Shown in pieces: positions 10,341 to 49,077 of a stretch of 64,000 nt of DNA (the stretch's first letter is position 1; each line of letters starts with the position of its first letter). The DNA is taken from positions 23,621,899-23,685,898 of the forward strand of contig OZ316891.1 in assembly GCA_973895155.1 (NCBI GenBank), read 5' to 3'. The position numbers and the translations under genes are program-made. Below the pieces are notes generated by a model, which worked only from the letters and a program-made list of their open reading frames with translations, did not search any database and was not told the origin of the DNA. This stretch comes from Marsupella aquatica. Lineage: Eukaryota > Plantae > Marchantiophyta.

Positions 10341-10404
10341 ATACCAAACGTACATACTCTAATAGCACGATATACTACTACACTACTCAGAATGGTGTGA
10401 CAGC

Positions 10405-10540: not shown

Positions 10541-10715
10541 ATCGCCCCCCTAGCTGGGAGTAAGGTCCCCTAACTCTAGCTAGCCATGAGTTCTACAAGG
10601 TTGATATACACCTTTTTAGGTGTGAAGATCAGGAGGCCGGGTGCAAGTGAGCCCCATCGATCACCTACCTGCAATCCATATCTGCCAAGAGAGCACAAAT
10701 GATAACTAGTCGGCT

Positions 10716-12047: not shown

Positions 12048-13760
12048 TCAAAACCTCTTGGCTCTTTGTAGAACCCTGTCACGTTCGTTGGCATCAACAC
12101 TGCCAACAATAGAACCACTGTGCAGATATTCCAACACTCTCACATCATTGTGAATATCTTGCTGTCCAGAAGTTACCTCACCAACATCCACATCTGAAGA
12201 CTCATCATCCACTCCATCCAATGAGGTAGAGTCCACAGATCCACTGTATGCTGGCACCCAACAAAGAAAGGCAGATGCATGCCATCCTGGCACCATCTCC
12301 TTATCTGACTCATCATGCCATCTGGCTCCAGTCTCATCCTGCTGACTGGTACATGGATTGCGGCTTAATCCATCTGCATCCAAGTTCACTTTTCCAGGCC
12401 TATGCACCACCTGGAAATCATACTCCTGTAACAACAATGCCCATCGTGCAAGCTTCCCTGTAAGCTTGTCAGACTCCATTAACCACTTAAGAGGCTGATG
12501 ATCAGTGATCAAGGTAAAGGGGTTACCAAACAAGTAGCAACGAAAGTGTGCAACAACCCACACTGCTGCCAAACACTCTCCCTCATAAGAGCTATACTTA
12601 GCCTCTGCTGCTGTTTGATCTACTGGCATAAGCCACAACAAACTCATTCCCCTCATCATCCTTCTGAGTTAGCACTGCTCCAAGTCCTACTCCACTCCAA
12701 TCAGTGTGGAGCTGAAATGGTCTACCTGAAATGGGTCTTCTCAAAATAGGGGATGATGCCAACCTTTGCTTCAACTCCTGAAAGGCATGCTCTTGGTCAT
12801 CACCCCAAGTCCATTCCTGATCCAACTTAGTGAGTATGGTTAAAGGTTTAGCAAGCTGGCTAAATCCTTTAACATACCTCCTGTAGTAGCTCGCCAATCC
12901 CAAGAATGCACGAACTCTACTCACATCAGTAGGACAAGGAATCTGTGTAATGGCCTCCACTTTAGTCTGCTGTACACCCAATCCCCCTAGGTATATAGTG
13001 TGGCTCAAATACTCAATCTGGTCTTGGAAGAACTTACACTTGCTAGGATGGAGCTTCAACCCATGTGCTCTCAATCTCTCCAATACAGTCTGCAAGTGCT
13101 ATTGATGTTCTTCCATAGTAGAAGAATAGACCAAAATATCATCAATATAACATCTAACAAAATCCAAACTTGCAAGGATTCGATCCATGACTCTCTGGAA
13201 CTCAGCTGGTGCATTCTTCAACCAAATGGTAAGAATAACCACTGATACAAACGATCTTTGCCATAAGAATCAATCCCCCAGAATGCTGTCTTGGACCTGT
13301 CAGCATGCCTAATTGAAAGCTGATGGTACCCTGCCCTCAAATCCAATGAACTGAAAACCTTTGCATGCCCCACAGCATCAAAGATCTCCTCAGTTGTGGG
13401 CATGGCATATCTATCAGATTTTGTCTGGCGATTAATGGGTCTGTAATCACCACACATGCGCCTATCTGTGTAATTGCCATGCACATCCTTCTTGGCTGGC
13501 ATCACTGTGGCAAATGCATACTCCCCATATGAAATCTCCACCAATCTAGCCTCCAACAAATTTTGAGTTCTGCTTTCAATCAGAGCTCTCTCCATGTCAC
13601 TATAACGGTATGGTCTACGAAAGATTGGCGCATCACTAGCCAATTCAATCTGAATACCAGGGCCCTTCAGTGTCCCCAAATCCTTCATGCTGAATGCAAA
13701 ACAATTCCAATAACTCTTCAGGAATCAATGCATGTGATGTCTCTCCTCCCCTGTTAACTT
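12048..13760 (-). pseudogene. pol: Gypsy reverse transcriptase-RNase H (with stops and frameshifts)
   Basis: RMCGDYRPIN, LDLRAGYHQ, YIDD near 13140, HTDWS, TDHQPL, ADGLSR. Confidence 0.92.
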
Positions 13761-13838
13761 AGGGCCAAGCTGTGGTTCCCAACTCTCCACCAAATCCCTA
13801 ATATCTCTTTGTAGGGTAGAAGAGATAGCCGATGATTG

Positions 13839-14404
13839 TTATTTAGCAGTAGATTGAGCAGTCCCTTCCTGCTCAACAATCTGTCCAGCCTTGGCCAATC
13901 CTGCCATAGGTCCATGGACTGTTTGCTCGCCCCCAACTGTGGTCAATACTGTCTCAGTGGACCGCAAGCTCACCAAGGGACAATCAGTAATTCCAGCAGA
14001 GCGCATCTGCAACTGTTCAGCTACTCCCAAGCTGATAATCCAAGTCAAACAATTTAGGTCCATTGCTTGACCAAGAACCTGGCGCCGCAAACCCTCTAAC
14101 ACAGAGGCAACTGCAGTGGTGCCAGTCAAAAATCCCATAGCACGCTCTCTCTCATCAGCAGTAGGCTCCACTAACTGCTGGAGAGCTGTGTCCCACACAA
14201 GTCCAGGGCCACCTGCTCTGAATGCATATGAAGCAGAGTGGCTTACAAGAGTGGGTAATGCACAACGTGGGCGCCCAACTGCATTGACCATTGCCAATGG
14301 AGGTCTACCAGGTTGGGTCACACCCTGTGCCCGACGCCTTGGATCCAAAATATCATCCACCACTAAGGCCGGTGAGCGTGGAATGCTGTCAAATGTGCGC
14401 TTCA
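13839..14404 (-). pseudogene. C5 cytosine methyltransferase, C-terminal half (TRD, motifs IX-X)
   Basis: EPTADERERAMGF...RRQVLGQAMD; joins in frame to 30953+ after removing insert 14405-30952 and one CTTCA (EVLK-RTFDS). Confidence 0.85.
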
Positions 14405-14742
14405 TGTGACGGGGTCCCCGTCACTCAAAATCACGAATAATGGTCGCGGAGTGTTGCCGAGCGTAAATAACCATTGTAAATAAGCCGGTTTTTTTTGGTT
14501 TTTTTGTTACGACCGGCATTATCGGTTGCTATGTCCCGGAGGTCTCTACAATTTTGGATATCCTAATAGTTTGGAGGCCTAAGGCTTCCCAGTAAGCCAG
14601 GATGTTGGGACCTTGAAACTAGGGTCGGTCTAAGTGGACCCCCTGTTTCCCTTAGGCCCTGATTCCCTCTTTCTTTCTTTGAGACCCCAAATAAGGATTA
14701 GGAGGAGTGCTAACCTTTACGGAATAAGGGAAAAGCGAGGGC

Positions 14743-15091
14743 GGCGGAGCCGGGGTACGCTCGGGGATGGGGGGGGTATTAAACCCTCCCGTGAGCCCGT
14801 GAGCGGGGGTGGCTGTGAGAGAGGCTGCCGGGGGAGAAAAATTAAATCCCCAAAAAGGAGAGCGCAGCCGGGACTCCCGCGAGAAGGGGGGAAATGGTGC
14901 GGCGGAGCCGGGGTACGCTCGGGGATGGGGGGGTATTAAACCCTCCCGTGAGCCCGTGAGCGGGGGTGGCTGTGAGAGAGGCTGTCGGGGGAGAAAAATT
15001 AAATCCCCAAAAAGGAGAGCGCAGCCGGGACTCCCACGAGAAGGGGGGAAATGGCGCGGCGGAGCCGGGGTACACTCGGGGATGGGGGGGG
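14743..15091 (+). repeat. G-rich tandem repeat, 157-bp unit, about 2.2 copies
   Basis: GGCGGAGCCGGGGTAC...GGGGATGGGGGGG recurs at about 14743, 14901 and 15058. Confidence 0.9.
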
Positions 15092-18000
15092 GAATTAAAA
15101 ATTCCCCCTTATGGGGCTCCCGCGAGTGAGGCGCAGGAGGGCACCGGGGCGCAAGGCGAAAGGAGGTGTCGGGGGGAATTTTTTTTTGGTTTTTTTTCTT
15201 CCCTTCTTTTCTCCCTCTTTTGCACGACCCTCTCCTTGCCAAAAGCAAAACTTGAGCTCTCTCTCAACACCTTGCCGAAAGCTCTCTCCACCTTCTAATT
15301 ATTTTTGAAGCTCTCTCTCATGGTAGATTGGCGGGGCTTGGTGGCCTGATTCTTCCGGGCATTAGCGGCAGCAGCATGGAGTGGCTTCTGGGGGAATTGA
15401 GAGTAATTGATTGATTGGGATACGGGGGCCGTTTCGGGCCAGGGGATTGACATTGCTACGGGTAACGGGATTTGGTGATTGAGGATTGGATTTCTGGATG
15501 CATGGATGCTGGATCAACCAGAGTTTAGTGAGGCACGCATTTGGAGATACAAGGCTGCTTACCGTGACTATGTTGAGACATTGATTGCAAGAGAGAGAGA
15601 AGAGAGGGACGCTACGATGAGTACTGGACCGGCAACAAGTCCCGCATCGGTTATGAGGAAGGTTTTCCGTCGAATTTACCCCAAGACCTCTGCCAAGGTG
15701 ATGGAAGATTGCAAAGCTATGTTCCAGGCCGCCGGGCTCACCGACTTCATGAGAGTAGAGATTAGAATCCCTTCGGACAAGAGTTGGAACATTGAGGCCG
15801 GGATGGAGTTACGTACGGAAGGAATCTACTTTGAATGTCTCCAACGGGTAGTGCCCCATGTGGAGTTAGCTAAGCTTCTGTTCCTGGAGAACCAGTAATT
15901 CTCATTTACACCTCGAAACATAAGGGGAGAGCTCACGTTGACAATGGTGGCCGGTTGGGTGATTAATCCCACCTCCACTACTTCCATTCCTCTTTCCGCT
16001 GTCAAGGATGCTGAGCACAAGGGATTTCTGGCCAAGGTTCATCAACGGGTCCTGGGTAACGTGCAATCTGGGGTGGTGAATGGAGAACATTTCATAGTAG
16101 CTATGGACATCAAGAACTATCCAGCCCATGTGTACGGATGGTGGTACTACGGGTTGAAGAAGCTATTGGACGCTGATCCCGGGAGTGTGAAATCCGGTGG
16201 GGCTGTACATTTGATGGGGTCATTTTTGCTGGCCAGAGCAGAAGGGTGGATTGTTTCCCCGAGACAGGAAGACTCTGGATCATCCCTTACCACGGAAATT
16301 AGGAGTATTGCCACTACCATCTTGGGGAAACTAACGGAGGGATCAGCGTCGGCAGTGGGGGATGATAATAGAGAGGAAGAAAACCAGGATGAGGACTCCA
16401 CATTGGAGTGGCTTGAATCACTTGTGGGAAATCCGGAGGAGCCCCTGGTCTATGACATTCCTGATGTCTACCTGGCGGAGTTACGGGAATTTCGGGAGGG
16501 AGTCCATGAGGGACTCAAGCTAGTCCACGCATTGAGAGATTCTTTCAAGCAGGCCACCGCTAGAGTAGAGACTTTGGAGCAGAGTGCCCTGTCCATGAAG
16601 GAGGTGATCAAGGCCAAGGAGGAGGCCATTCATGAGAAGGTGAAACTTCTCCAAGCAGCTCACGTAGAGATTTCCAACTTGAAGGGAGCCTTGTCCACCA
16701 AGGCCAAGGAAGCGGAAGAGGTTGGAGTATTGAAACAAGCATTGGCCAAGGAGAAGCAGAATTCTGGAGACATGGTGGAGTTAAGAGCCCAAGTGGGAGC
16801 ACTGCGGGGTCAATTGGTGATCTTTGAGACAAGGGCTAAGAGGAGTGAGGCCTTGAGTCTGGGGAAACGGAAGAGCCCCTGCACACCTAGCTCCACACTT
16901 TCCCCGGATTTGATCTCCAAGGCCATTGAGATGGTGGTGAAGGAAGTCAGTGGGTGTGGTGCGTCCCATGGCTCCCTAAACCCAAGAAACCCCCCAGCTC
17001 AAGCCGATTCCCGCAGGTTTCACGCTTGGCGAGGCCGTTTCCGCGGCTTAGCGGCATGGGACGCTGCTAACCTTCTACTACTACTATTAACATTTTACAC
17101 ACATATACTGGACAGATCCTTCATCGGGTCATGAGATACGTAGCCGGCCTAATCTAGGCCTTCCCCTGTCTTCCCCTCCGTCTTGTTAGGTATGTTTGGA
17201 TTCCGCCGCCGGAATGATCCCCAATAGGCTTGGTTAAGCCGCTAAGACCTCTCTCAGCTCGACACATCCAACTCTCACTCCCCTGCTTACTTTCCTTCCT
17301 TTTGGTTGATTTGGGCACTCTTCACACAAGTTAATGCGACACACAAATAGCAAAATGACTCATTCTGACTGAGTCATACCATGCACTTGCCATACAAACA
17401 GTACATCTCATACACAAGTTCTGCGAACTAAGCCGTGAGGCCAACTCTATTCAGCTCTTAGGCATGAGGAAACATGAATATACACAAGGGTCACTGTATG
17501 ACTAACCGAGAGCTTCTCGTACTACTTGATCCCAGCCCGGCTGGTGCAAACTAAAAACTTGCTAAAGAAGAGGCCCTGAGCTCCCCGCTGCCCAGGTACT
17601 TATCCTGGTAGTGGATCCGCCATTCTTTGCATCGTAAGCCTAATCTACTTAACAGTAATCTACTTGCCCGAATCTACCTATGTACAGCAAGGCAGGAGCA
17701 CAAGTGTTGCTCCTACCAGTGGGACCGCAATCCCACTAAGCTAAGTGTCAGGGCCGCTCCTGGTCCTGACCCTAATCCTAAACTTGGAGATCAGCGCCCG
17801 CCCTGCCCACTCACGCCTCCTCCCTCCACGTCCGCCCTCCCTAAAAGGAACGGCGCCCTTGCACCGTCACAACACCGGTGGTGGATCCTTAATGGACGCC
17901 CCCAACGCTTCCTCCTCAGCCACTGCCGTAGGCTCATTCTCTGACAGATTACCTGCCCTTGACTGAGTCAACTCTCCATCGGCCTGATTGGGTCCACCAT

Positions 18001-18386
18001 CGGCGTCGGCATCGGCTCGGGAATCGGTTACGGCCTTAGCCTCGGCTACGGTCTCCCCGGCCTGCTCAAGAGGCGGATCTGGAATACCGGCCTCATTACT
18101 GAGTAGTTCGGCTTGGGCCGCACCACCCCCACCTGTGATGATAGCGGGATCTATTGCCGTATTCATGCCGGAGGATGGTGCTGGTTCTACCTCCTTGGTC
18201 ACCACGGCTTGTGGAGTCGGATTACTCCTTGACCCTGAAGGTTTCCGCTTTTTCTTCTTTTCTGGTTCGGCAGCTGGTCCCTTCCCCTTCCCACTTACTT
18301 CCGGCACTGGTGCAGTTGGCGCGGCTTTTTCTTCGGCCAGTACCACTCCTGGTAACTTGGTTGCCCCAATTGGAGTTGGGCCTGAT

Positions 18387-20764
18387 TGTCACGCGATTGA
18401 CATGGGTCTTAACACCAAAAACGTCACTATGGGTGCCAAAACCATCTCCTTGTACCTGAGGATCACGAAGGGATGTTGTGAATGCCGGTAAACACCAGTT
18501 TATGCCCTTAACACCAGACTATCATAGCAAGACTCTATCACACATCACCCAAGCTCAATCCCAAGGAACCGAGGTTGGGGATCAGATCTGCGCTCATGAT
18601 AGTTCTGGTGAGAAGGGGTCTTCATATCGGGCCCGTACACACAGGGCCTAGCGCTACGGTGCGCATAGGTCTATACATATGCTTACTGTCATAGGTATGT
18701 TTCTATTCCGCCGCCGGAATGTACCCATAAACCAGTGACTCCTGACTGATTCCCGGCTTAGGGACTTCTAAGCCATTGCCCCACCACTCTGCCATTCCAC
18801 TCTCAACAATCAGAGCTATGACAGTCCTCACCTAGCCCGCTTCAATGCACCCGGTACACCTCTCAGTGGCGCTGCTAGTTCCATCATACACTCAGATTGC
18901 CTCACACACACACACATCCATGAGAGAAATGAGGCCTGAGAGGAAAACTCAATTAGATTCAAAGATGTGCACAATAGTTCACTGAGAACACTTGATCCGA
19001 ACACTAGGGCCGAAGGCTGTCTCCTCCAGATTGTGACGTGCTTGCCCTGCAAGCCCCATGCTTGCCATGCAAGCTCAATCCTGAACTCAACCTCCTTCAC
19101 TGCACTTCATTCTTGGGGGCACATACAGATCTCACACCTCCAATTCAGAACGTCAAGTTACGCATGCATAGTTGACTCGACTTCAAAGCTGGTACCAGGC
19201 CTAACGGCGATCTACCCCAGACTGCAATGAGGCCCGACCTCACGCTTGCCCTGCAAGCTCAGCTCTGGCCATAGATCCCTTAGTGCTCTCCACCAGACAA
19301 AGGCCGGGACTCCCCATGGGTCACGTAGCCTTGCCAGACTGAACTGTAAATGCTCCTCCTGCTGCCCCTTAATCAGTACCTCGGCCTCCCTAATGTGCCC
19401 ACCGCAAATCGAATTGAAATCCTCCCCACAGTTTACAATCACCAATACATCACCTATCACCAAGGCTCTGTATCGGGGGAAAAGAACCCAGTTGTGCTGC
19501 CCACTAGAAAGAGCCACAATCCAGCTCGCAAACCTAGCAACCCGTTGCTGTGAAGCTTGGTTGATTACTCCCTGAGTATAGCACAACCAAGCTCTCCCCA
19601 ACACGCAGCGTCCAAGTCCAGCCTTGCTTGCACAGAGCTCCTCCCCGCTACTCAGTCTAAGTGAGATCACACAACTGAAGTCCCCCCCTGGCTCTACCGG
19701 AGGGATGCTCTATATACTCTCTCATTGAGCCCAAATGGGTGGATGCTACGCTGCTGGAGCCCCATCCCAGCCCTAATAGAGCTGCCACTATCTCTAACTA
19801 CTGAACCCTAACTCGCAACTTTATTTCTATCTCGAATTGGCTATGTACTTCGGATTCGGCCCTCCTCCATAGTTTTCGCGAGCTTGCGCCTCCTCTCCCG
19901 ATTTCTCTATTTAACCATTTTCTGCGTGGATAGCAGCGTTGGAAGCGGCTTGAGCTCCTCTTTCCAACGAGGTCAATTATAGCCGATTTGGTCAAATACA
20001 CAGAGAGTTATGCCCCCGTAACCGAGAGGGGGTACTCACTGTTGCGCTAACCCGAGTTACATAGCTAACCCGAGTTCGGCTAACCTAGCTATCCTATCTA
20101 ACCCGAGTAGAGCTAACCCGTGGTCTCGGGTTAGGCCGCTACCCGCTATCCGCTATCCGCTAACCTAGCCTAAGCTGAGCCCGAACCTGAGCTTACCTAT
20201 GCTAACCTGAGCCCGAGTTTAGGCTAACCCGAGTTCAATCTAATCCGAACCTAGGTTAAGCCTAAGCTGAAGCTGTGCTGACCTAAGCTAAGCTGAAGCC
20301 GTGCTTACCTGAGCTAAGGTGAAGCCGTGCTCACCTGAGCTAAGCTGAAGCCGTGCTTACCTGAGCTAAGCTGAAGCCGTGCTCACATAAGCTAAGCCGT
20401 GGTCGAGCTTGGGTTAACCCGAAACTGAAGCCGAATCCGCTAATTCCGGCCATAAGTTAACCCGTCACACTAATCAGGCCGTATCTCTCTTAATACACCT
20501 CCATTTCCCGAGTGTTTTATATCGATTTTACTCGCCTTGACCAGATCTTTCCAATGCTCTTTACAGATCCGGATTTGGTGACATATTGAAGAGATATGGT
20601 CGTCGACCACCCGCGACATAGTTTTTATTTCCCTACTCTTAACGCCATGATTGCCCTTATTCTTGCCATCTTGCTAATTGTTATGTAATATCAATAGCTA
20701 CTCCTTGCATACAGCAACCTACTTAATCAGATTACAAAATAAGGATCATGTCATTGGCGTCACA
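18387..20764 (-). mobile_element. Solo LTR family 3 (2378 bp)
   Basis: TGTCAC...GTCACA ends, TSD CTGAT (18382-18386/20765-20769); the empty site is visible in the paralogous copy at 60981-61003. Confidence 0.85.
20045..20465. repeat. Minisatellite: GCTAACCCGAG units and ~26-bp CCTGAGCTAAGCTGAAGCCGTGCT units
   Basis: Directly visible tandem repeats inside the family 3 LTR. Confidence 0.85.
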
Positions 20765-23700
20765 CTGATGAAGACAAGCACTTAAATACTGCGGCTTGTT
20801 TCTTCAGCCGCTCCGTTTGGTTGTCGGCCTGCCGCTGGAGGTTCTCCATCTTCCTCGTGATTTCCTCCAACTCCTCCTGGGTCTCATCCAGGTCCTTGCG
20901 TGCCTCCTTTAGTTCCTTCTGGGCTTCCTCCCGTTCTTGTTTCAAGGTAGTCCTCTCCTCCTGGGTTGCTCTTAGCTCCTTGTCGAGCTCTACAATGATG
21001 ACAGACTCCATCTGGTTCATCTTGGCGTAAGTCTGTTCGAGCATCTCGTCCTTCTCCCTTAGGTCGGCCTTGAAGCTGGCCGTCAGGGACGCAAGCTCCT
21101 GCTGCAGCGCCATAATCCCTTGATAGGATTTCCCTAACTCGGCCTCCTTCTGCTCAAGGGCTCCGCGGATTTTCTCGAGCTCCCCCTTCAACGCCCATTC
21201 CTTTCTTTGGGTCTCCGCCATGGCCCGGCTGTTGGCTGTTATGTGGGCCTCCTCTGTATTCTTCAGCTCTTGCTTCCACTTCTCCCTCTCTTTGATCGTG
21301 TCGGCCAACTCTCCCTGCGTCTGAGTCAGTTTATCCTTGATATTCTGATTATCAGCCTGCGCGGTGTCCAACTGCCCCTGCATGATGTTCAGCTCATGTC
21401 GTTTAATCCGCAGTTCATCTTGGGCTTTCTTGGCCGCCCTTAGATCTTCAATCTCGGCTTCCATCCTCCTAAGCCGCCGAATGACCTCGTCCTTCTTGCT
21501 TCTCTCTAAAGCCACCGCTTCTTCTAATTGGTGCTTCTCCAACTGCTCCCTATGGAAAAAGGGTCCTACCTCCAACTCCTCTCCAAAGATGCCGAGCGCA
21601 AGTTCCCCACACATCTCACCATACTCCATGGCTCTATTCTTAGCGTAGGTGGAGTAAGTAGAAGTGATCGGCATCGCCCATCGCGGCCTCTGCTCCCAAG
21701 CCGTCTTGCGGATCTCTTCAATCGTGGCTAGAGGTTTGCTTCCTTTTTTGGCTAGCCGCCTGATGTCCTCCGGCCAATCTCCTCCTGGTAAATCCTTTTC
21801 CCTAGCCAGGGCTGCCTCCTCTTCCTGCTTGATTCGCTCCTGAAATTCCTGCACCGTCTGTTTTATGTCGTCGAAGCTCGGGGGAGCAACATCTGGTGGG
21901 GGAGACTCAGGGCTACTCTGCTGGTTGGGGTCCCCTCGCACTACCCTTGGAAGTGTGGGGACAAACCGGCCACAGGTCCTTACTCCTGGGATGTGATGGT
22001 CCGACCCATAGCCGGAATTATCATGGTTGCAGTCCTCCACTGCCTCCTCTACTTCTTGGCCGTCCGGCTTCTCCCTCTCCTCTTCGTCGGTAGGAGCTTC
22101 AGGCAATTCTGCCTCAGATTCGGAGCTTGAGATTCCCACGTACATTCGAACACTTGGCTTGGATTCAGGCCTGATTCTCTCCTTGTCTCCAGCAAAGGGG
22201 TTTTCTCTTGTGAGCCGGTGTAGGCCTACCTCTGTAGTAGTGTCCTGCATTGTTGCCGTTGCCGTTGTTGTTGCCGATGCCGATTTCTTTTCTTTCTCCA
22301 GTAGTTTCAGCAGACTCTGCATGCCTGGTTGCTGCATCGGCAAGTCCTCCTTCCTGGGCCTAAACACCTGCTCGATCGTAGGGCTAACAGGTGGTTGAGG
22401 CTTCTCAGCCAACGGCCTCGGCGTTGGAGCTTCCTCGGGTGCCCTTACCTGCAGGGGAAGTACCGGGGCAAAAGTCTGACCTCTGGCATACCGGCACAAC
22501 AGCGGCATGTGATAGCCAAGCCGCGACACGCTCCCCATGCCGATTACCTGCTGCTCCTCCTTTAAGATCTTCTTCAATTGGTTGAGAAGGTACCCGTTGT
22601 AGTCCCGGCTTGGGTCTGGCCTTTCTGCCAGATAGACCTATGCCTTGCCGATCTCTGCCCTCGGCAAGTTACAATGCATGGTCACCCGCAAGAAGTCGAT
22701 CATCTCTCCTATGTGCGGGTTGGTGCAGGTGTTCTGGAAGAAGCCATTCTTCGTTGATGGCCCGGGGAACGACCGGAACTCCTTGTCAGGCAAGGTCTTC
22801 CTGGTATCAACTTTGGTCTTATTGCCTATCGGCAAGCCAAACACTTCGGCAATTACCTTGGGAGTAAGATAGAAATCCTTCCCATATATCCTCGTGCAAT
22901 TGGTCTCGGGTTCCCATGACCCCACGAATTCTAATAGGTCTGACTCCGGTACCTCCGGCTTCAGCCATGGTAATCTTACAAAGGCCTCTAAGCCGGATCC
23001 GGCCATGAAGCCTTGGTACTTCTTGGTCTGCATGGCCGTGAAGCATGCATCCTCCTCCCGTGCAAAATGTAGTTGCACCTCCACCGGTAGGGTTGCCGCC
23101 CAGCCCTTCCAGGTGTCATCCCTGGTTGGAATGGCCTTGATGGGATCGACCTCCTCCTCTTCGGCTTCTCCCTGCCTCCTGCTCTGCTGCTCGGCTGGCT
23201 TCTTTGGTGCCGCCGACCTCGTTCTTTTTGCCGGGGTGGCTTCATCGTTGACGGCTCCCTTCCTCTTCATCTCTGCTGCCGTGGAGGTTTCTCCTAGCAC
23301 CGTTGCCTGGGTCCACCTTTCCGTGCTACCCTTTAATTCCCAGTGTATGTCGTTGCAGTTCTTGATGGCCTCTCGGATGCCGACGACGCTGTCTTTGCAA
23401 AACAGAAGATCATCGAGTTGATTGGAAGTAGGCGTCCACAAGAACTCGTCCTTGATGAGTTCGCCTCCTAAGAAAGCCGTCTTCTGCAGCTCCCACAATC
23501 GAGCGAGCTCCTACCATTCTCGAGCTGCCCTTTCTAATTCCTCGTCCTCGTAAGTCTTGATGTACTCAGTTGCCCGTTCGAACAGGCATCCCCAGAAATG
23601 TGCCGCTTGATTGACGTTGCTCATACCCTCCTTAGGTCGATCGTCGGTATCTACTCTCTCCCTGAGTGCTTGCTTAAGCAACTGACAGTAGTTGGCCTCC

Positions 23701-25283
23701 CGTAGTTGTCTGCCTAGTTCGTGCTCGCAAATGAGCCACCATCTCCTGCAAGCACTCCTTACCCCTCTCCTCTGCCGGTCCTTCTTCCCATTGATCCTTC
23801 CTAGCCGCCGACGCTTAACGCGCCCTAACCCTAATCGAGTTTTCACCCTCAGCGTCCTTACCTCCGGCCTCGGCCCGGGTTCCATGGTTGCCCCTAATGG
23901 TTTATATTTTCCTTGTTTTGTCCCTATACTAAGGTGTTCCTAGGGTGCCTTCCTGCTTTACCCACTTAACTGGCCGAGTGATTCCTGTCTAGGCATCACA
24001 GTGGGAAGTACGGACCCCTGTTGGATGCAGCCAAGAAGAGTCAAGAGAAGAGCAAGAGCTTAGAGAAAAAGCTCAGGGAGGTACGTAAATCTTTACGAGA
24101 AGCTCAGGTCAACATGGGGACCCCGGGGATGCCACCCCGATCTGTCACCCCTGGGACTCCCATGGCCACTAGGCAGGTTTTACCGTTGGAGTTGCGGTCC
24201 GGTGAAGAGGCGGCCTTATGGAAGGACACCATTGGTGAGGGGTACATTAAGGCGTGGCAGGCCTTGGCCAATTTGAGGAAGCAGGGGAGCACTAGCACAA
24301 GGAGTACCCCGGTAAAGAAGAAGAGGAGTGAAGTAGCACTCACTACAGTGGAGAGTGATGAGGAGGCCCACTCACGGGGCTTAAGCCAGGGCACCGTGAG
24401 TGAAGAGGAGGAGGATTAGAGTGGTCGTACGGACGTGGTTGTACGGCCCCTGGACTTTCCCCAAAAAAAATTTGAGGGGTCACTCACGGGCTTGTTGGAA
24501 AGAGCTCGCGGAGCTGATTCCAACAAGGGGCGGCGCTCCTCAAACGGAGCGAGGATGAGCAGGTTATGGCCCGGCGAAGTTGTGTTTACGGGAAACGGAA
24601 ACGGCCATAACTTGGTCGTCTGAGGTCCGTTTTGAGAGCGGTTGAGTGATTCATGATAAGGAGGAGGGGGACCATCCAGAGGTGAACTCAGTAGTGCAGG
24701 TGGAGAGGCGCCTAGTTTTGGCCATTGTGAGGTTCCTTGCAATTTCACGGTTCACGGAGTAATGTTGGGGCACCATCGAAGGCACCGTCAGCCCCATTGT
24801 TAGTTTAGGGTTTGTGGTTTTAGCAGCATGTGTGTGCCACATGCCTTTTTAGTTTAGGGATTTCTTAGTGCAGGGTTTTCGCGGCGCCGCTAGGGTAAGC
24901 CGCCATCGTTGTGACCCCATGAGGGGTGCTTTGGTGTGGTTTTTTTCGGTATTTAGGGGGAGAGCCCCGAAGTAGTTGGGGGGGAACTCAGCATAGTGCT
25001 TGGAGTAGCTTTTGTGAGTAGCACACCGATTAGGAGAAGTTCAAGCCAGAGTAGTGAGGTGGAGAACGTAGCACTTGTCCCCGGGAGGCAGGAGTTGGGC
25101 AGACGGCAGGAGGCCGGGTTGTCCTTGCATGTGTTACGGGAAACACCAAGAGATATGGATTTGGCTTGAGGTTCCAATATTTTGTGTGTCACTTGTTGTT
25201 GCTTGTGTTGTTTGTTTTCCTCCCCTAGTGCGTGTGGTCGGTGTCGTTGTGGAAACATTTGCCCTTGTCACTAGTGTTCAAAT

Positions 25284-28200
25284 TGTTTCATTCAATGTAT
25301 TCACCAACAATGATCACGCTTCTCTTAGGAGTGTAAGAATATATGGGTTACATTGATGGGCAGTTATGTAACTGCCCTAACTCCTAATTGTCACTTAGAG
25401 TGTAATCTACATCTTATAACACTCCCCCTTGGTTCTTTGAAGTGATTAGAAAAAGAACCACTCTATGGAGATTGTAACTCTAAGTGTTAATTATTTGATC
25501 CTTATAAGTAGTATGGCCTCATTAAAACTTTCCCGCTTTCTTCTGAAAGAAAGAGTGCCACTACTGTACAAGTAATAAGGTCATCGAAATACATTTAGGG
25601 TAATCTAATGAGAATTTTATAGTGAAAGTTTCATGCAGTTTCGAGAGTTTTAGTTCTAGCTGTGAGTTTGTAGTAGAGTAGATAGACGACGCATCCCGAT
25701 ACCATGTGTGTGATCGTGGTGAACTGAAGGTGGGAGGGGCTTAGTGAAGAGATCTGCGCGATTATCTTTACTTGCAATCCAATGAACTTGAATCTGATCG
25801 CCATGCTGTTCGTGAGTGTAGAAAAATTTGGGGGCAATATGCTTTATCCGATCTCCTTTGATAAAGCCTTGTGTAACTTGATCGACGCAAGGGCGATTGT
25901 CCTCGTAGATAGTTGTTGGAGCATTGAGAAGTGGACGACCTGTATGCTGATTAATGTGATCAATGAGTTGTCTGAGCCAGATGCATTCACGACTTGCTTC
26001 GTAAAGGGCAATGATTTCTGCATGGTTCGAGGACGTTGTCGTGAGGGTCTGTTTGGAGCTTCGCCAAGATATCGCGGTGCTGCCTTGGAGAAATACATAC
26101 CCGGTTTGCGATTTAGCGTCATCCGGGTCCGAAAGGTATCCAGCATCAGCAAATCCGATGAGTTCAGAAGGAGCATCGTTGGGAAAGAACAATCCCAAGT
26201 CAAGTGTGCCCTGTATGTATCGAAAAATTCGCTTTACGCCATTCCAGTGTCTTATTTGTTGGTTGCGAACTATGACGAGCAAGAAGGTTAACAGCGAATG
26301 AAATGTCAGGGCGTGTGTGATTCGCTAAGTACATGAGCGCACCAATTGCTGAAAGATAGGGTTTTTCTGCTCCAAGTATCTGCTCTGTTTCTGTGCGTTT
26401 CTTGAATGTATCTCGATTCGGGTCCAGAGATCTCAGTTCCATTGGAGTGCTCACTGGATGAGCTTTATCCATGTTGAACTGCTTTACAATCTTTCTTGCA
26501 TAAGTCGCTTGATTAATAAGTATGCCGCCCTGCACATAGTCAAATTGAAGTCCAAGACAGTACTTGGGTTCTCCTAGATCTCGCATTTGAAATGTTGTTT
26601 TCAATGTTGCCATTGTTTCTTTAACTATTGTAGGTGTACCGAAGATGTTAATATCGTCTACATAAATAGCGACGATTATGTAATCTGTGTCATGTTGTTT
26701 AAGAAAAAGACAGGGAGCAATGTCGTTATTGACAAAGTTCAGAGCTAGCATCTCTGCCTTAAATCTTTTATACCAGGTTTGGCCACTTTGTTTGAGCCCA
26801 TATAGGGATCGCAGTACTTGGACTGCCAATTGTTTTGTCTGTATAGCAGATCTGGGAAGTCGACTTCTCGCTTGATGTGCACTCGGCACCTGTAATTCAT
26901 GAAGAACTGAAGGTTCGTTTTCATGTGCATGCTTTAGAAGGTACTCTATAGGAGTTTTCCTTGTTAACCCTGATTGTAGATCAGGGTTTGTATTATGTTT
27001 ATTCTCCCCCTGAATTCGAAATGTCATTCGTGTGATTAACTCAGGAGGAGCCTTCATGTAGATTGTAGTGTCCAATATGCCATAAAGGTAGGCTGTGATA
27101 ACATCTAGTATGTTTAGTGTCAATTTGTGCGTAAGTGCAAACGCTATCATGTATCTATAAGTTATCGAATCCATCACGGGTGAGTAAGTAAGGTCAAAGT
27201 CACGTCCTGGGATTTGCGTATAGCCTTTAGCAACCAGTCGTGCTTTGTACCGAATTATCTCTCCTTGAGCGTTTCTTTTCCGTGTGAAAATGAATTTATA
27301 TCCGATAAGTGATGTGTGTAGAGGGGTAGGAATGACCGGACCAAAGACTTCTCGTTGAATTAATGAGTCCAATTCAGAATTAAGTGCTATCTCCCACTGG
27401 GGCCAATCAGGCCGCTGCTGTGCCTCATGGACTGACAGGGGATCTGGGGTGTCATTGGTGATATCCTGAGATATATTGAATGCAAATATATCATCTATAA
27501 TTGTATCCTTTCGATGCCATAATCGACCAGTATGCATATAATTGATGGATATTTCTTGATTTTCTTCTGGCTGAGTGAGAGAGTGGGTAGATGGTACCGG
27601 TGGAGGTGGCACATTCGTTGGGTTAGCTGGTGGTCGTCGTTGGCGAGGTTGGCTGTCTCTAGAGCCCAGTGGTCGACCTCGTTTTGCTCTTGGGGCAGCT
27701 TCAGTGGCAAGTTGGTCTAGTATTAGTATTTGGGCTGGAGTATTGGCCGCCTCTGTGTGTGAACGGGTTACTTCAGCTGCATCATTAAAAGCGTCCGGGA
27801 GCTTTTCCAGCATCTGATGGAGATGTAATATGCGTCTGACTTCTGCATCAGCTTGTCTGGTACGTGGATCAAGTCCCACCGGTAGGATGGTCTGCCATTG
27901 TAATAATTGTTTTCTACCATTCTCATCGGATGGATGTGTAGTTAGTTTCGGAAATTCGTCTTCAAAAAAGGTACAGTCAAGGAATCTGGCCTTGAACACA
28001 TCTGTTGTGGATGGTTCCAGGAACCGAATAATGGAGGGTGAGTCAAAACCAACATAAATCCCTCGTTGGCGCTGGGGGCCCATCTTGGTGCGTTTTGGGC
28101 CTAGGATAGGGACAAGGACTAAACACCCAAACGTCCGCAAGTGAGAAATGTTAGGTGGTATACCAAATGCAAGGTAATGCGGAGTATGGGTATTAAATGC

Positions 28201-30650
28201 GGAAGGTCTATATTTTAGGAGAGCAGCTGCATGCAATATTGCATGTCCCCATGCTGTAGGAGGAAGCTGTGTTTGCATGAGGAGTGGCCGAGCTATCATT
28301 TGTAGTCTTTTAATGAGAGATTCTGCTATGCCGTTCTGAAAATGAACGTGCGGTACCGAATATTGGGTTTCTATGCCGGCAGTCTCACAAAAATCATCGA
28401 ATGTTTTCGACGTGAACTCCCTGGCATTATCAACCCTGAGTGTCTTTATTGGATTGTCAGGGAACTGTAGCTTTAACTTGAGGATGTGTGATAAAATCCG
28501 TGGGAATACTAGGTTCCGGGTCGAGATCAGTGAAACTTGGGACCATTTTGATGAAGCATCAATAATGGCCAAGTAAAACCGGAATGGACCAGATGGCGGG
28601 TCAATCGGGCCACATACGTCAGCGTGAAGCCTTTCGAGGAATTTAGGAATGGAGTGAATTGTTTTAGATGTGGCTGGTCTGGTGATTAACTTTCCCTATG
28701 AACACGCAAGACAGGGGCTCTTCAGAGATGATGGGCGCACCCCTTGGGGTATGCCTATCGTATCCCGGATTATATTATGGTACATGTTGGTACCAGGGTG
28801 GCCTAGCCGATTGTGCCAGCGCTCTGTGGGAGTTGGAGGAACTATTTCTACATGTAATGCGTGTATGGTGGTGATGTATAACCCGGGAGGGTGGATAGGC
28901 AAGGTTTCACAGATTTTCATTCCAGGTGGAGAATGGTCAATAATGTGTAGGACTTCACCCTCATTGGTCTTGCTTGTATATATGTGAAAGTTGTTAGCTC
29001 TTATGTCTTGGAAACTAATTAAATTTCGTGTGGCTTTAGGTGCGTATATTGCCGAGGAGATGTTGATTACTGTGCCCTGGGGGAAACAAACTGATGCGGG
29101 GCCGTGCCCTTCCTCAATATGATTCTGTCCTGTGATGGTAGTTATGGCTCTGTGAGAAGCTATAATTGTTCGAAAAAAATGTCGATTTCTTAGGATGGAG
29201 TGGGAGGTCCCACTATCTACTATGCAATTAGATGGTGTTAATTTGCCTTGTGATTGTGCATCCATGTGAGCAACGTGGGTTTCTGGAAGGGGTGTATCAT
29301 GTGTATAAGCATGTATGTCTTCAGGAATTTCCATAAAATTGCCTTGTGCATCTTCTGTTTGCCTGTTTATACTTTCTTTATAGAGCTTGACCAAGTGTGC
29401 AGGAGCCCGACATTCTTTTTGTAAATGTCCTTTTGTACCGCATCGGAAACAAGAGGGTGTAATAAACTTATCTCTTGGTTGTGCTTGGTAGCCTCTTCCT
29501 CGATTCCGTCCGCCACCTCCGCGTTGATTCCAAGTGGGGTCTCGCTGGAATTCTTGGGATTGTTGTCGGAAGCTCCCACTGCCTCTGTATCCTTGGTAAG
29601 TTCCTCTTCCAAATGCACGTCCTCGGCTCCCCCTGAAGTTGCCATGTCTGCGCCCCCGGAATCTTGAGGCCATAAGATGAGTTTCTGGTCTGGCTGGAGG
29701 GGCTGCACTCCCTGGTGGTCTTGTTTTAGCATTGTTGAGCAGTATTATCTGATGCTTCTCAGCGAGGAGCATATGTGATATCAATTGAGAATACCGCGTG
29801 AAATTCATGTTTTGATATTGAGAGGCTAGAACTATGTTAGTTACATGAAAAGTGGACAGAGTCTTTTTGATCTGCTCTTCATCATCCACTGGATTACCGC
29901 AGACAGCTAATTGGGAGGTAATTCGGAACAGTTCACTGTTATAACTCGCAATTGTGCTGTAATCTTGTACTCGCAGGTTTATCCAATCGTGGCGGGCTGT
30001 CGGGAGTGATATGGTCCGCATATGATCGAAGCGTAATTGTAGTTCGTCCCATAGGACCCTTGGGTTGTAGTGATTGAGATATTGAGTCTTAAGCGGTTCA
30101 GCAAGATGGTGCCTGATTAGTATCAAGGCCTGAGCCTTCTGTTGTAATGTAGTACCTGCATCGGTTAAGGTTGTGTCTTGCAGGTCTTTAGATGCTAGAT
30201 GTGCCTCCACATCTAAAGACCAAGACAAGTAATTTGCGCCATCGATCGCGAGAGCTTTGAAATGTAATTTCTCCATGATTGATCAATGCTGCAATTGGAA
30301 GTTCCGATGCTGGCTAGCTTGTAATAAGGTTCTTTGATAATGCAATCGTTTATGGCTAAGGAGATGGTATCGTTCAAAACCTGATGGATTTCTCTCACCG
30401 AGTTCCAAGAATCAGTTCCAATCGAGGAATAGTGCTGCTGAAGTTTAACTGCGCGTCATCTGCCTCTATCTAAAAAAAAATTTGTCACACACATCAGCTC
30501 GTGCTGATAACGTGTTTCATTCAATGTATTCACCAACAATGATCACGCTTCTCTTAGGAGTGTAAGAATATATGGGTTACATTGATGGGCAGTTATGTAA
30601 CTGCCCTAACTCCTAATTGTCACTTAGAGTGTAATCTACATCTTATAACA
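25284..30650 (-). mobile_element. Full-length Ty1/Copia, Bianca-like, very recent
   Basis: Identical 138-bp LTRs 25284-25421 and 30513-30650; TSD CAAAT; PBS plus-strand cgtgctgataacg at 30500-30512; PPT AAGGGGGAG at 25422-25430. Confidence 0.97.
25656..30276 (-). pseudogene. gag-pol: Copia gag-pol (one stop at ~28696, frameshift at ~26250)
   Basis: CFRCGTKGHLQKEC, VDSG, integrase core, YVDD, ADAGYLSDP, ADLFTK. Confidence 0.95.
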
Positions 30651-30952
30651 CAAATCTTATTGTAAATGTTTGTATGCTTGCCCAAGAAAGGAGGGGGGTG
30701 GTGACAGCACTCACCTGGTGGGCATGAGTTGTAGATGGTAGGACCAGTCCCTTGGACTTGATCAAAAATGGAGAGACCAGTCGGTAGACTTGATCAAAAA
30801 GTACACTTCCGGGAGCGGAATCAAACATACTCCTCCTTAGGTGTGGAAATCCTCCAAATAGCGTCCCTCCATGACCCCGTAATACGATACCAACGATTTA
30901 AGCAAGGAAAAGTATGGTTTGCATGTATTAATCGTTGGATAGGCAAGTGACA

Positions 30953-31535
30953 CTTCAGCACCTCACATGGGATCAAATTAGTCCACCACAAGCGTGGATG
31001 ATGTGCACGAGAACCCACACGTGCAGCATCCAATAACACAGCAAGTCCAATCCAAGACCTCACCTGGTGAACACTGGCAACAATCCGACTATGATCATCA
31101 CCTAACAATGGCACATTCTCCAAAATGTATGCTGGAGACTGTGTCTGATGTAGCTGGAGATGACGCAGCACCCGTAACATCTCCCAAAACAATGCAGAGC
31201 GTGGATCATGAAGTCCATGCCCAATGCCAGCTCTAGATTGGCCCTGACATGGCCAACCAGCAATCACCAAATCAATGGGGCCAACACGATGTAGATGATC
31301 CGCCCCCAACAATGAAATATCAGCAGGTAGTGCATGTTGATAACCACAAACAACATCCACTGGCAGCAACTGTGGATATCTATCCACCAACATAGCCACA
31401 TGTTGCAATAAGACCCTCCGTGCTGTCTCATCTGTCTCCACATACAAATAACGACGCACAGGAATTCATGCCTGAAGAATAGCAGCCAATCCAGTGCTAA
31501 TCCCACCAAAAAGATCCAACAAACAAATACCCTCC
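30953..31535 (-). pseudogene. C5 cytosine methyltransferase, catalytic N-terminal half (motifs I, IV, VI, VIII)
   Basis: LLDLFGGIS (I), DLVIAGWPCQGQS (IV), YILENV (VI), RAHHPRLWW (VIII); one in-frame stop at 31466. Confidence 0.92.
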
Positions 31536-32746
31536 GGTGGATATTGCCAAGCAATAGGAGTGGTATCCAATGGTGAAAGAGTCACAGGTCCATCTGCAAG
31601 AGACTGCTCTGCTCCTGACTGTGGTGTAAAAGCATGACGCCATGCATCATGTACCAATCGTGTTGCTGCCTGTGGCAAGGCTTGTGCAGTGCCCCACACT
31701 GGTGGCACAACACTGCCAACAGGTAATCCTCGCATGATGTGCTCCTCATGAGACTCCTCCAATGGTGGAACATCGGCTGCATGCGCATTACCTTCAATCA
31801 AATCATCAGGTCCAGCAATTACACCACTGAATGCTGCCAAAGACAATGGTGTGGATTTAGGGCCTCCCATAGGTCCACTAAATCTCACTGGAAACTTTCT
31901 CAATCGAGCATCTCCTGACTGCCAATCAGGTCTATATGATACTAATTCCTCCCAAAAATCAAGAATAAATCCCATGGGGTAGAGCATTGTACATCCCACC
32001 AACACATCATATGACTTTGCCTTAGTTAGAATAGCTCGCGCCTGTATCTGTGAGCTATCTGTGGTATGACCTTTCTGAATCCTCAAATCAAGTGGTCTCC
32101 TGGTGATATGCTGTGTAGGTGTAGGTCCCCCCAATGAAGTCTGAATGGGAAAGGGACAATCCTCCAAATCCTCTGGACGCAATCTCAATCCATGTATGGC
32201 AGACTTCCCCAACATCAAGGGCTGAGCACCAATATCCAGTAACACTCTCTCTGGCTGGTATACTGCTCCAGAAGGCCCAACTAATCGGAAGATACCACTC
32301 CGATTATCCAATGACACAACACTAGGTTTAAACCTAGTCCTCTCAAATGCAGGGCATGCTGGTAAATCCACCAACCTTGCTGCTGCTGCATGCCATGTCT
32401 CACTAGTAGCAGTAGGTGGTATGGTCTTCACTGCTTCAACACTGCAAGCTGCTTCTACATGGGAAGCAACAACTGGAGTGTCCTCACAAAGTGTAGCTGC
32501 CAATCTAAATACTTCTGCAGGACCAACTCCCAAGTTCAGCATGTCTGTCGCTGAAAATAATGGGGCGCGTACCATGGCAATAGCCGCCCCCAGCAAGGTA
32601 CCTGTCATCCCTGCTGCATCACTACCTGATTCTGCCAACTTACCCACATCAGGGTTTGTCCGAACAGGGTTCATAGAGGCAGTGTGAACTGTCTCTGACA
32701 ATGTAAAAGACTGAGGAAGCTTTGTCTGCCGACGTGCATCCCCCCT
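31536..32746 (-). CDS. Aspartic protease and linker of the DNMT-Gypsy polyprotein
   Basis: VLLDIGAQPLMLG and YDVLVG motifs; in frame with both Gag and the DNMT. Confidence 0.75.
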
Positions 32747-34384
32747 CTATGGATCTAGCTCCACTACTGCTCCTTGGGGCTCAAGAGCTTTGGCTACCCC
32801 ACGTGTTAAAGTTGCTGATGCATCAATATGTGCAGTGCCAGACATGAATCCCATGGTGGCAAGATCTCCATCAGCTCCATAAGATGTGGAAGGACCATGG
32901 GATGTGGAAGGTCCATAGGATGTAGATGCCCCATCACCAGAAGTAGGTCTCACTTGGGAACTAGCCATGGCAACTAGTTGTTGCTCCAATTGAGCAATCT
33001 TAGCATCCTTTGGATCTATGGTTACAGCAGGGGCAGCATTACCTCCCTGTCTCCCTGCATGTGGCATGCCACGACCACGTCCACCCCCTCTACCTCCTCC
33101 TCCTCTTCCCTGATCATGTGTACGGGATCCTCCTCTCCGTAACTCAGGATGGAGTGAGAAACACCTATCCTTGGTGTGTCCAGGAGATCCACAGTGATCA
33201 CACTGTCGCTGATCAGGCGCTGATGCTCCCCCTGATCCTCTATGATCTGGACAATATCTCCGTGCATGATCCCCACCACAGGTCCAACATCCTGACTGCT
33301 GTCCAGCATAAGAGGGCACAGGTCTCTGGCTGGTAGACTCTCGTGCAGTAGGCTTCTCCCTCTGGCTCTTCCATGCAGTAGGCTGTGGTGTGGATGTAGA
33401 TGCAGCCTTTGGTGCTTCCTTGGTAAATCCAGAAGTCACCACCTTCTCATTCACCATATTGAGCTCAATGCGCTCAGAAAGGGTGAAAACAACTGCTAAT
33501 GTGGGATCTGCATCCCTAAGCAGAGTGACATCTCTCACTCTGCGTCGCAATTCTCTATCCAAAATTGCATACCAAAACTGGACTGCTTGAGCCTCTATCA
33601 CTCCCTTGGTGACAGTGATCAATCTGTGCATACGAGTGTATGCCTCACGTAGACTCTCTCCAGTCTTGCGGTGGAACTCCTGGAGACCCTTCAACTTATC
33701 AGTTCTCACACCCTGATAGTTCTGCTTCAGTACCTCAAAGAATTCCACCACAGGATTAAATGCTGGCGCAACTCCAGTTCCTGTCACAATCACACCGGCA
33801 GGAGTAGCGGTGGATGCTGTTGGAGTGCTGCTGGTGGATGGTGTGCCACTCTGGCTAGTGCTGCTAGAAGAGGCAACAGCTGTGGCAATGGGTTGGGCAG
33901 CCGCACTAGTGCCATAGGTGATGGACACGTAATTAGGTGACCAATGCTGCCTCCATGCCTCAATCTCAACCAAATGAGCCTTCCGAAACTCATGGTTGTC
34001 ATCCATGGGTGGCCCCTCCAAATGCTGAAATAATCCCTTCCATGCCATGAAAGGGGTAAACAACGTGGCGTTATGCAATGTCTGCATATCGCACCACGTA
34101 TCAAACTCCTGGATGAAGTCATCCAGATCAATTGTGCCAACTGCACCAGAGTATCGTCGTGGGCCCTTTGTAGCCCCGTACATCTCGTCCATATCCCACA
34201 ACAAAGGTGCAACCACCTGATGACGAGGAGAACTGGTCACTGAGTCCTCATCAGAATCACTGTCTGAAGCTGCACTGTTGACTGCTACCAATGCCGTTGG
34301 CCGAAACTGTGCCCCACTCTGAGTGAAACCGGTCCGTCGTCCATTGGGTAATCCAGCAGCACCAGAAGAATCCGTGGTGACCAA
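32747..34384 (-). CDS. gag: Gag with two CCHC zinc knuckles
   Basis: GESLREAY capsid motif, CWTCGGDHARRYC, CDHCGSPGHTKDRC; the TAG at 32747 is in frame with downstream pol. Confidence 0.9.
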   Translation of the reverse strand: MVTTDSSGAAGLPNGRRTGFTQSGAQFRPTALVAVNSAASDSDSDEDSVTSSPRHQVVAPLLWDMDEMYGATKGPRRYSGAVGTIDLDDFIQEFDTWCDMQTLHNATLFTPFMAWKGLFQHLEGPPMDDNHEFRKAHLVEIEAWRQHWSPNYVSITYGTSAAAQPIATAVASSSSTSQSGTPSTSSTPTASTATPAGVIVTGTGVAPAFNPVVEFFEVLKQNYQGVRTDKLKGLQEFHRKTGESLREAYTRMHRLITVTKGVIEAQAVQFWYAILDRELRRRVRDVTLLRDADPTLAVVFTLSERIELNMVNEKVVTSGFTKEAPKAASTSTPQPTAWKSQREKPTARESTSQRPVPSYAGQQSGCWTCGGDHARRYCPDHRGSGGASAPDQRQCDHCGSPGHTKDRCFSLHPELRRGGSRTHDQGRGGGGRGGGRGRGMPHAGRQGGNAAPAVTIDPKDAKIAQLEQQLVAMASSQVRPTSGDGASTSYGPSTSHGPSTSYGADGDLATMGFMSGTAHIDASATLTRGVAKALEPQGAVVELDP

Positions 34385-34676
34385 CCCTAACCTAATCTAT
34401 GTGCTAACCCTAAGGGCAATCTATCCCTGTCAGCACCACAAGCACTCACCATGGTGTGTTGGGCATCACTCCAACATCACCGGGAGAGAAATACGCAGCA
34501 CAACTAGAATGTCCGGTTGCAAACCCGGATCATTCTTATGGAATCAAATGCCCACACCAAACTAACATGGCGCATAAATAGGAAACATGTGTGAAGAGGA
34601 TCCAGAAACAAGAATGGATACCATTATCAGCCTATTCTTTAAAAGTGTATTTTCTTTTGTTCACAAATCAGTCCTG

Positions 34677-34756
34677 AAATGTACACTTTTATGTCCCCAA
34701 ATGTACACTTTAAGAAGCCCAAATGTACACTTTTTGATACCTAAATGTACACTTTA
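34677..34756 (+). repeat. Left subterminal AAATGTACACTTT repeats
   Basis: Four copies. Confidence 0.85.
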
Positions 34757-35014
34757 TAGGCCAAATCTTATTAGTATTATATTAATATATTATATTATAT
34801 TAATTATAATAGTATTATATTACTTATTAGTTCACAAAGAACCATGGGATAGAGATCATACTTGTAAAAACATTTACACACAAAGAAGCCTAGGCAAGGA
34901 CCATTGATTGATAATGTGTGAAATAATTATATACAATTGTGTCCAAACTTACGATGAATATCCAGGGCTGGCACCCATTTTTACTATCTAATGGGCTTAA
35001 CATGAGTCAGATCT

Positions 35015-49073: not shown

Positions 49074-49077
49074 TGTG

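Follow-up and report, generated by a model that had tools for sequence, protein, structure and literature searches.

The DNA analysed here, hereafter called the window, is a stretch of 64,000 nucleotides from Marsupella aquatica (contig OZ316891.1, positions 23,621,899 to 23,685,898), and its minus strand carries a Gypsy retrotransposon in which a DNMT3-type C5 cytosine methyltransferase (DNMT) is placed after the protease and before the reverse transcriptase (RT). We regard it as almost certain that this is a dead element of a bryophyte-type Gypsy-DNMT3 family. Motifs I (DLFGG), IV (GWPCQ), VI (ENV) and VIII lie in one minus-strand frame at 31535-30953, within an N-terminal half at 30953-31555, and motifs IX-X (ERERAMGF, GQAMD) lie at 14399-14031, within a C-terminal half (target-recognition region, motifs IX-X and a linker; 13842-14399) that was delimited by the motifs, homologue alignment and a family profile. 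Between the halves stands a composite TG..CA insertion of 16.5 kb (14405-30952), bordered by CTTCA at 14400-14404 and 30953-30957. A first-pass annotation, made by a model from the letters, had proposed that the halves join once this insert is removed, and this was borne out: when 16,553 bases are taken out the frame is preserved, and homologues are contiguous over the join, with residues 1-540 of the protein P0001 aligning to 32575-30953 and its residues 539-726 to 14405-13842, while P0002, also an intact homologue, aligns gap-free to both halves. The same annotation had placed a C5 methyltransferase between protease and RT in a Gypsy element, and we found motifs I-X there with RT, RNase H and the integrase core (rve) downstream; the PF00145 search that it had recommended gave a match to the N-terminal half with an E-value of 1.3e-11 and 45 bits, the cut-off being 22.

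The C-terminal half searched alone had no match in Pfam or among PDB sequences; in the family profile it corresponds to motifs IX-X of DNMT3A. The top solved-structure match of the N-terminal half alone is DNMT3A, and a profile built from 20 family sequences matched DNMT3A at E 1e-16, DRM at 1e-8, and DNMT2, HaeIII and HhaI at 2e-5 to 7e-5. For the predicted model of the relative P0002 (predicted local distance difference test score, pLDDT, 65.8, with the target-recognition region of low prediction quality), Foldseek ranked DNMT3A/B first (4e-15), and superposition gave Z 21.8 for DNMT3A/B (root-mean-square deviation 3.8, 261 aligned residues), 18.9 for M.MpeI and 18.5 for HhaI. The domain is classed here as an unrearranged DNMT3-type enzyme with motif order I-X, the type being assigned from profile and predicted fold. 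Phage enzymes were considered as donors of the domain and rejected, on the grounds of a best identity of only 24-31% and a tree position, on a long branch, of three phage enzymes outside all 40 element DNMTs; coverage of 80% was reached in 3 of 425 phage records. PHROG 116 matches the domain at E 8.5e-24 and, given this match, viral input may have contributed to its deep history. A scan of viral contigs for a related pattern gave 42 matches, of which 0 were confirmed.

Upstream of the methyltransferase, on the same strand, are a Gag region with zinc knuckles (32351-34192), assigned through homologues with zf-CCHC, and an aspartic protease region (31901-32350), where the homologues P0046, P0121 and P0098 match Asp_protease; neither window piece itself had a Pfam match. 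Downstream are RT and RNase H (12300-13724) and a DDE integrase (10716-12299, terminal stop 10718; rve E 7.5e-14), which is about 70% identical to its relatives and ends in a C-terminal PHD finger (E 2.8e-10) directly before the stop. No chromodomain was matched in the window or in 41 homologue scans, and no tyrosine recombinase among the open reading frames (ORFs) of the element. By contig depth the element stands at about 100 times the neighbouring Copia in X1-X3, a value that is no copy number; the joint over the 16.5-kb insert was not among the 15 joints listed.

The methyltransferase had been described as embedded in frame in the polyprotein, which is correct for the frame and incorrect for an open reading frame, as an in-frame stop at 13839-13841 precedes RT. 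This stop stands in the readthrough-type context TAA CAA TCA (13833-13841, minus strand), and it is conserved. A metagenome scan for related elements yielded 80 loci, representing 65 distinct insertions, and in 45 of the 47 loci that contain the end of the DNMT as well as the start of RT a TAG or TAA followed by CAA is found in the RT frame, 36 codons upstream of RT (40/42 distinct insertions after re-assemblies are merged); the next commonest stop position is shared by 9/47. The two exceptions are L041, where the signal is frameshifted, and L064, which reads TAG TAG CCA. According to the accessible part of PMC2754532, CAR YYA after a stop permits readthrough of tobacco mosaic virus (TMV) in plants, where UAA is also leaky, and this CAR-YYA context is fully matched by the window, L027 and L030. 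Furthermore, 40 of 159 homologous proteins of at least 600 residues, some of them partial records, contain DNMT together with Gag or protease but lack RT. From the conserved TAR-CAA stop in a TMV-type context, it is therefore likely that the first ORF (ORF1) encodes Gag, protease and DNMT, and that everything from RT onward is made by readthrough.

The repeats had been described as about 99% identical, and this held, with 326 of 330 bases identical between the copies of one repeat (A; 4 differences) and 2 of 138 bases different between those of another (B); the implied pair of long terminal repeats (LTRs) was not found, the layout being split as A-coding-B-A-B. On the minus strand and by self-comparison, the 5' copy of A, which starts with TGTC, occupies 49073-48744; the first copy of B, ending with GACA, 10542-10405; the 3' copy of A 10341-10402 and 3751-4022, split by a plus-strand Copia element with an ATACC duplication (4023-10340); and the terminal copy of B, also ending with GACA, 3750-3613. 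The whole is flanked by a 4-bp target-site duplication (CACA on the minus strand; 49074-49077 and 3609-3612). L035, L040, L066 and L073 have the same layout. Among eight elements with both ends, the 4-bp duplication is exact in six (window, L033, L040, L049, L066 and L073) and has one mismatch in two (L027 and L035), the respective chance expectations per element being 1 in 256 and roughly 1 in 20. TG..CA ends, the 4-bp duplication, a DDE integrase and the order protease-RT-RNase H-integrase are thus all present.

The junction of B and A is GACA-GC-TGTC or a transition-decayed version of it in 7/7 cases; in the window this palindrome lies at 10399-10408 and is the predicted cut site of the integrase. 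The palindrome is common to the window and to a family whose A has no BLAST similarity to that of the window. At the A/B junction extra bases are found in L040 and L049 (2/7), and those of L049 include primer-site bases. A tRNA-type TGG primer site was not seen after A. The 12 bases ending the first A complement a site inside A (48923-48934, minus strand), a pairing of at least 12 bases that arose in 1 of 2000 shuffles; we predict this internal site to be the transcript start and self-primer, and the primer-binding site to lie directly after A at 48733-48744 on the same strand. For 10 of the 19 5' ends of a Sphagnum-like family, a different 11-mer pairs best with one fixed site that lies about 31 nt past a TATA-like box. 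Self-priming of Tf1 likewise involves 11 nt. A polypurine-tract-like AGGGGGGCG (10543-10551, minus strand), a motif that recurs in related loci, stands directly before the first B. Among 19 distinct 3' ends, 11 are short forms that stop after the first B and 6 are long forms, the other two being one rearranged and one cut end; the short forms L027 and L033 carry duplications.

The catalytic PC had been noted as intact, and it is; the enzyme of this copy is nevertheless dead, with a TGA at 31466-31468 right behind motif I, further stops and frameshifts. Six premature stops were counted (32749, belonging to the TAG 32747-32749 in Gag; 31468 in the DNMT; 13727 and 13101 in the RT and RNase H region; 12050 and 11864 in the integrase), together with two frameshifts near 13230 and 12610, and the copy is dead. 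The first Arg of motif VIII, kept in 51 of 74 related pieces, is His in the window, and three later insertions interrupt the element. Judging from the sequence, the window copy is fairly young, yet unable to produce the enzyme. At the level of the family, the catalytic Cys is kept in 72 of 74 aligned locus pieces and the Glu of motif VI in 68 of 75, and the Cys is at least 90% conserved over the diverse alignment A2. The ratio of nonsynonymous to synonymous substitution (dN/dS) of the DNMT is 0.13-0.19 between the window and L007, L018 and L030, with dS near saturation, and 0.13-0.28 between lineages whose dS is unsaturated, RT having 0.08-0.11. Purifying selection and the retention of catalytic residues thus hold for the family and not for the dead window copy.

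That the domain should be present in other copies of the family had been anticipated, and copies carrying it were found in Marchantia, in Calypogeia, in Sphagnum and in metagenome loci. The 58 longer homologues include about 14 loci of Marchantia polymorpha (annotated Marchantia relatives are 56-74% identical) and entries of Calypogeia, Sphagnum and Riccia; 2198 cluster representatives were found at E 0.001 or better, and named algal relatives belong to Closterium, Scenedesmus, Klebsormidium, Chlamydomonas eustigma, Cymbomonas and Monoraphidium. A DNMT tree of 43 rows unites the window with Marchantia, Calypogeia and Sphagnum at 100/99, and an RT tree of 33 rows unites it with Marchantia at 100/100; the land-plant setting suspected earlier is therefore likely, these being the nearest named relatives. 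The suspected kinship with the Gypsy DNMTs of Klebsormidium was also borne out as far as the identical domain order in P0264 and the DIRS-like layout go. A midpoint-rooted FastTree tree, from which proteins with a DNMT envelope of <270 or >430 residues were left out, grouped the window lineage with Klebsormidium elements (0.986), while IQ-TREE placed the latter in a set that is unresolved or paraphyletic. Among the 159 DNMT-bearing proteins of at least 600 residues, the domain stands before RT or directly after Gag or protease in 60 and behind RNase H or immediately ahead of integrase in 94, and is unassigned in 5. Chlorophyte elements with the DNMT between RNase H and integrase (P0124, P0274, P0275, P0285 and others, from Scenedesmus, Chlamydomonas eustigma and Cymbomonas) form a single clade (DNMT tree 100/99, RT tree 98/95) nested among elements of the order protease-DNMT-RT, a pattern compatible with a single old capture of the domain, which later changed position. 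The Marchantia elements group with Sphagnum (99/91), with the liverwort Calypogeia outside (P0005, P0006, P0050, L007 and P0010), a grouping suggestive of horizontal transfer or of old lineages of paralogues.

Our best explanation as a whole, which we hold to be moderately probable, comprises an ORF1 of Gag, protease and DNMT, readthrough of its stop, methylation of the complementary DNA (cDNA) and ends produced by cutting a palindrome. The transcript would start within A and prime itself, as in Tf1 and Tcn1 elements, and priming at the self-complementary site together with the purine tract would give an ordinary cDNA with a true terminal repeat, B-GC-A, at both ends. The integrase would then cleave the internal palindrome with a stagger, after CA in each strand, providing the processed ends that a DDE integrase requires. 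Cutting of an end-joined circle with two repeats would yield the long form A-coding-B-A-B, which alone could serve as template for a further round, and cutting of a one-repeat circle or of linear cDNA would yield the short form A-coding-B. RT, RNase H, integrase and PHD finger would be produced by reading through the leaky stop; because the DNMT lies upstream of it, many copies of the enzyme, at about Gag stoichiometry, would be present in each particle beside the nascent cDNA. New cDNA would be methylated, probably at CG, before insertion, so that the insert might resemble host heterochromatin or be protected, and the PHD finger would direct insertion to chromatin. For cDNA methylation by the element's own DNMT we judge the chances somewhat better than even, and integration through the internal palindrome is likewise slightly favoured.

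At codon boundaries the element has 15 CpG where 104 are expected (observed/expected ratio, o/e, 0.14); the ratio is 0.34-0.80 in the seven further ORF sets taken from mobile elements in the window and 0.11 in L030. This pattern agrees with recurrent methylation of CG in some lineages, whichever enzyme was responsible. A second Gypsy element in the window (55322-59023), in which a DNMT was not detected and whose RT is about 33% identical, has near-normal CpG (0.80) and is a useful internal control. CHG is depleted in the Sphagnum-like L040 and L073 (o/e about 0.6) and not in the window element and L030 (1.13 and 1.18), a contrast pointing to hosts with unlike methylation patterns.

A number of observations weigh against this explanation. 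CpG loss is mild in three of the four related loci tested (L007, 0.55; L020, 0.53; L064, 0.72), and the host MET1 or avoidance of silencing might equally deplete CpG. The Klebsormidium domain gave no DNA methylation in yeast, a result that its authors deem inconclusive in the accessible text of PMC5890265. Most Sphagnum-like copies read CAA CCC ATG after the stop, which departs from the consensus at one base and places an ATG three codons further on, where reinitiation is possible; RNA structure was not found downstream of the stop (z 0.37), and in P0264 and P0121 of Klebsormidium DNMT and RT are within a single protein. The best 11-nt pairing is located elsewhere in 9 of the 19 Sphagnum-like 5' ends. 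A symmetric two-repeat circle should also give the mirror form A-B-A-coding-B, and B was found upstream of A in 0 of 21 5' ends, three of which are limited by a flank of <130 bases or an incomplete A; the absence could be due either to an asymmetric cut or to ends built by template switching of RT with short forms arising by recombination. Assembly collapse, or recombination between B copies once the element had inserted, could account for the short forms. Lastly, no host gene was recognised among the 54 ORFs scanned in the window.

As to the stop, a bypass by reinitiation or splicing, or a shared old lesion in place of readthrough, appears improbable: the ATG of most Sphagnum-like copies and the annotated plant models P0008, P0013 and P0023, which continue into RT, speak for it, but the window, L027 and L030 retain the stop, the CAA and the frame without the ATG, and the stop is common to lineages about 30% diverged in protein. 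For the repeats, the alternative is a route in the style of DIRS, PAT and Ngaro, in which RT switches onto the internal B-A junction and rebuilds both ends of a linear cDNA, so that the integrase merely trims GC and the short forms are later B-B recombinants. Although somewhat unlikely in our estimate, this route has in its favour a layout equal to that of DIRS-type elements in the legends of PMC5890265, and it accounts for the missing A-B-A-coding-B. It is opposed by a primer site and a purine tract positioned as for an ordinary B-GC-A terminal repeat, by the variable A/B junction, once with primer-site bases, which is as expected of end-joined circles, and by an excess of short over long forms even though B is only about 115-140 bases.

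The role of the enzyme can also be read in two other ways. An active methyltransferase, brought into the nucleus by way of the PHD-bearing integrase, might act there on host chromatin or the insertion site and not on cDNA in the particle. The PHD finger at the end of the integrase, the position of the DNMT in chlorophyte relatives, where RNase H precedes and integrase follows it (76 of the 159 proteins), and a CpG depletion that is not family-wide agree with this reading, which we nevertheless think unlikely, as the DNMT here precedes the conserved stop, grouped with Gag rather than with the integrase, and no chromatin-reader domain of its own was found in the scanned DNMT ORF. Alternatively, the domain may be retained for a non-catalytic or RNA-directed role, for example nucleic-acid binding in packaging or priming. 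A dosage at the Gag level looks more structural than enzymatic, and the inactivity in yeast mentioned above would be explained; against this, the catalytic Cys, Pro and Glu and the FG of the S-adenosylmethionine (SAM) loop are near-invariant among decaying copies, as is seen also from the Cys in alignment A2, and such a role is very unlikely in our view.

The remainder of the window includes further mobile elements. The 16.5-kb insert carries nested Copia elements at 25284-30651 and about 16948-24000; its outer element, about 4.1 kb without the nested pieces, has TG..CA ends, coiled-coil ORFs and no internal repeat pair, and pieces of it recur at 59574-63992. A DNA transposon of 13 kb (34643-47669) with AAGTGTATT termini and TTAA on either side lies in the 5' untranslated region of the Gypsy element. 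It has 22-bp subterminal repeats and a 1227-residue DUF7869 ORF (plus strand, 43307-46990), and its ORFs on the opposite strand include a NIF-like phosphatase (E 1.9e-13) as well as a weak match, over 29 residues, to an N6/N4-methyltransferase (E 1.2e-5, just under the cut-off); protein search with this transposon gave no longer homologue, and 37457-38662 had no usable atlas match. Between its divergent ORFs are tandem arrays at 40576-40956 and 42081-43104 (34-bp and 66-bp units), both containing an inverted TTGGATTCGGA..TCCGAATCCAA unit. Another element, at 49336-55006, has inverted arms of 880 bp that are 81% alike.

Our literature search, in which few subscription papers were covered and the 2018 supplementary figures were outside the scope, returned no account of land-plant copies, of the stop, of the self-priming site or of the palindrome. 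The accessible portions of PMC12344493, PMC6453930, PMC10952607, PMC11982613, 10.1101/2021.02.12.428880 and 10.64898/2026.09.17.752431 contain nothing on such elements in land plants, and a 2026 preprint, in its accessible portion, limits its mention to 'streptophytes (Gypsy-DNMT3)'. How a transposon might benefit from bringing along the very enzyme by which it is normally silenced has been an open question since 2018. The sole earlier Gypsy case is in an alga with few tools, and the relatives in Marchantia bring a transformable model with methylation mutants; if our explanation is true, the Marchantia copies, present at a dozen loci, make cDNA methylation and palindrome-cut integration directly testable in a genetic model. 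The position of the stop indicates where and how much DNMT is produced, and the anatomy of the ends points to an integration route that LTR-finding tools, with their requirement for two equal LTRs, would overlook. More tentatively, and with doubt prevailing, we suppose a green-lineage group of Gypsy elements in which the integrase site is uncoupled from the cDNA ends, combining self-priming, a circle opened at a templated palindrome, loading of DNMT3 through a leaky stop and arrival in a CG-methylated state.

DIRS, PAT and Ngaro elements have split direct repeats and a tyrosine recombinase. The window element differs from these by its DDE integrase, TG..CA ends and 4-bp duplications; it resembles them, and SymbioDIRS-Dnmt3, in having A-coding-B-A-B repeats and, in the latter, a DNMT3 in the replication protein (accessible text of PMC5890265). 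With canonical Ty3/Gypsy elements it shares TG..CA ends, target duplication and the order protease-RT-RNase H-integrase, while split repeats replace the two equal flanking LTRs. Tcn1 and Tf1/Sushi self-prime with no tRNA primer, and Tcn1 occurs in mosses and clubmosses (PMC6317226, accessible part). The window element has a self-priming site, by sequence complementarity only, and a PHD finger with no chromodomain; DNMT and split repeats are unmentioned for Tcn1 and Tf1 in that part of PMC6317226. By the features tested, the element is thus classed as neither a canonical two-LTR Gypsy nor a DIRS element nor a chromovirus. Troyka (PMC12440569, as far as its accessible text goes) was also considered and found to be unrelated. 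Foamy virus integrase cleaves the palindromic 2-LTR junction (Delelis et al. 2005, PMC1180852, accessible part), so that there, too, a retroviral-type integrase forms processed ends through an internal palindrome cut; that palindrome arises at the LTR-LTR junction, whereas the palindrome of the window element is templated within its predicted terminal repeat. The window stop, TAA CAA TCA, resembles the TMV-type UAG-CAR-YYA (PMC2754532) and differs in following DNMT and not Gag. The closest counterpart is KnitGypsy-Dnmt3 of Klebsormidium nitens, for which PMC5890265 gives a DIRS-like repeat layout in a legend and, in its accessible text, purifying selection on the DNMT. Both have the DNMT between protease and RT, the order in P0264 being identical, and, going by that legend, A-coding-B-A-B repeats; the window lineage is likely of land plants and has the conserved stop between DNMT and RT, and the accessible text on KnitGypsy-Dnmt3 mentions no PHD finger, self-priming site, palindrome or 4-bp duplication. 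From its sequence, we conclude that the element works like KnitGypsy-Dnmt3, and that it is a variant rather than a member of that type because its DNMT and RT are not in one open frame.

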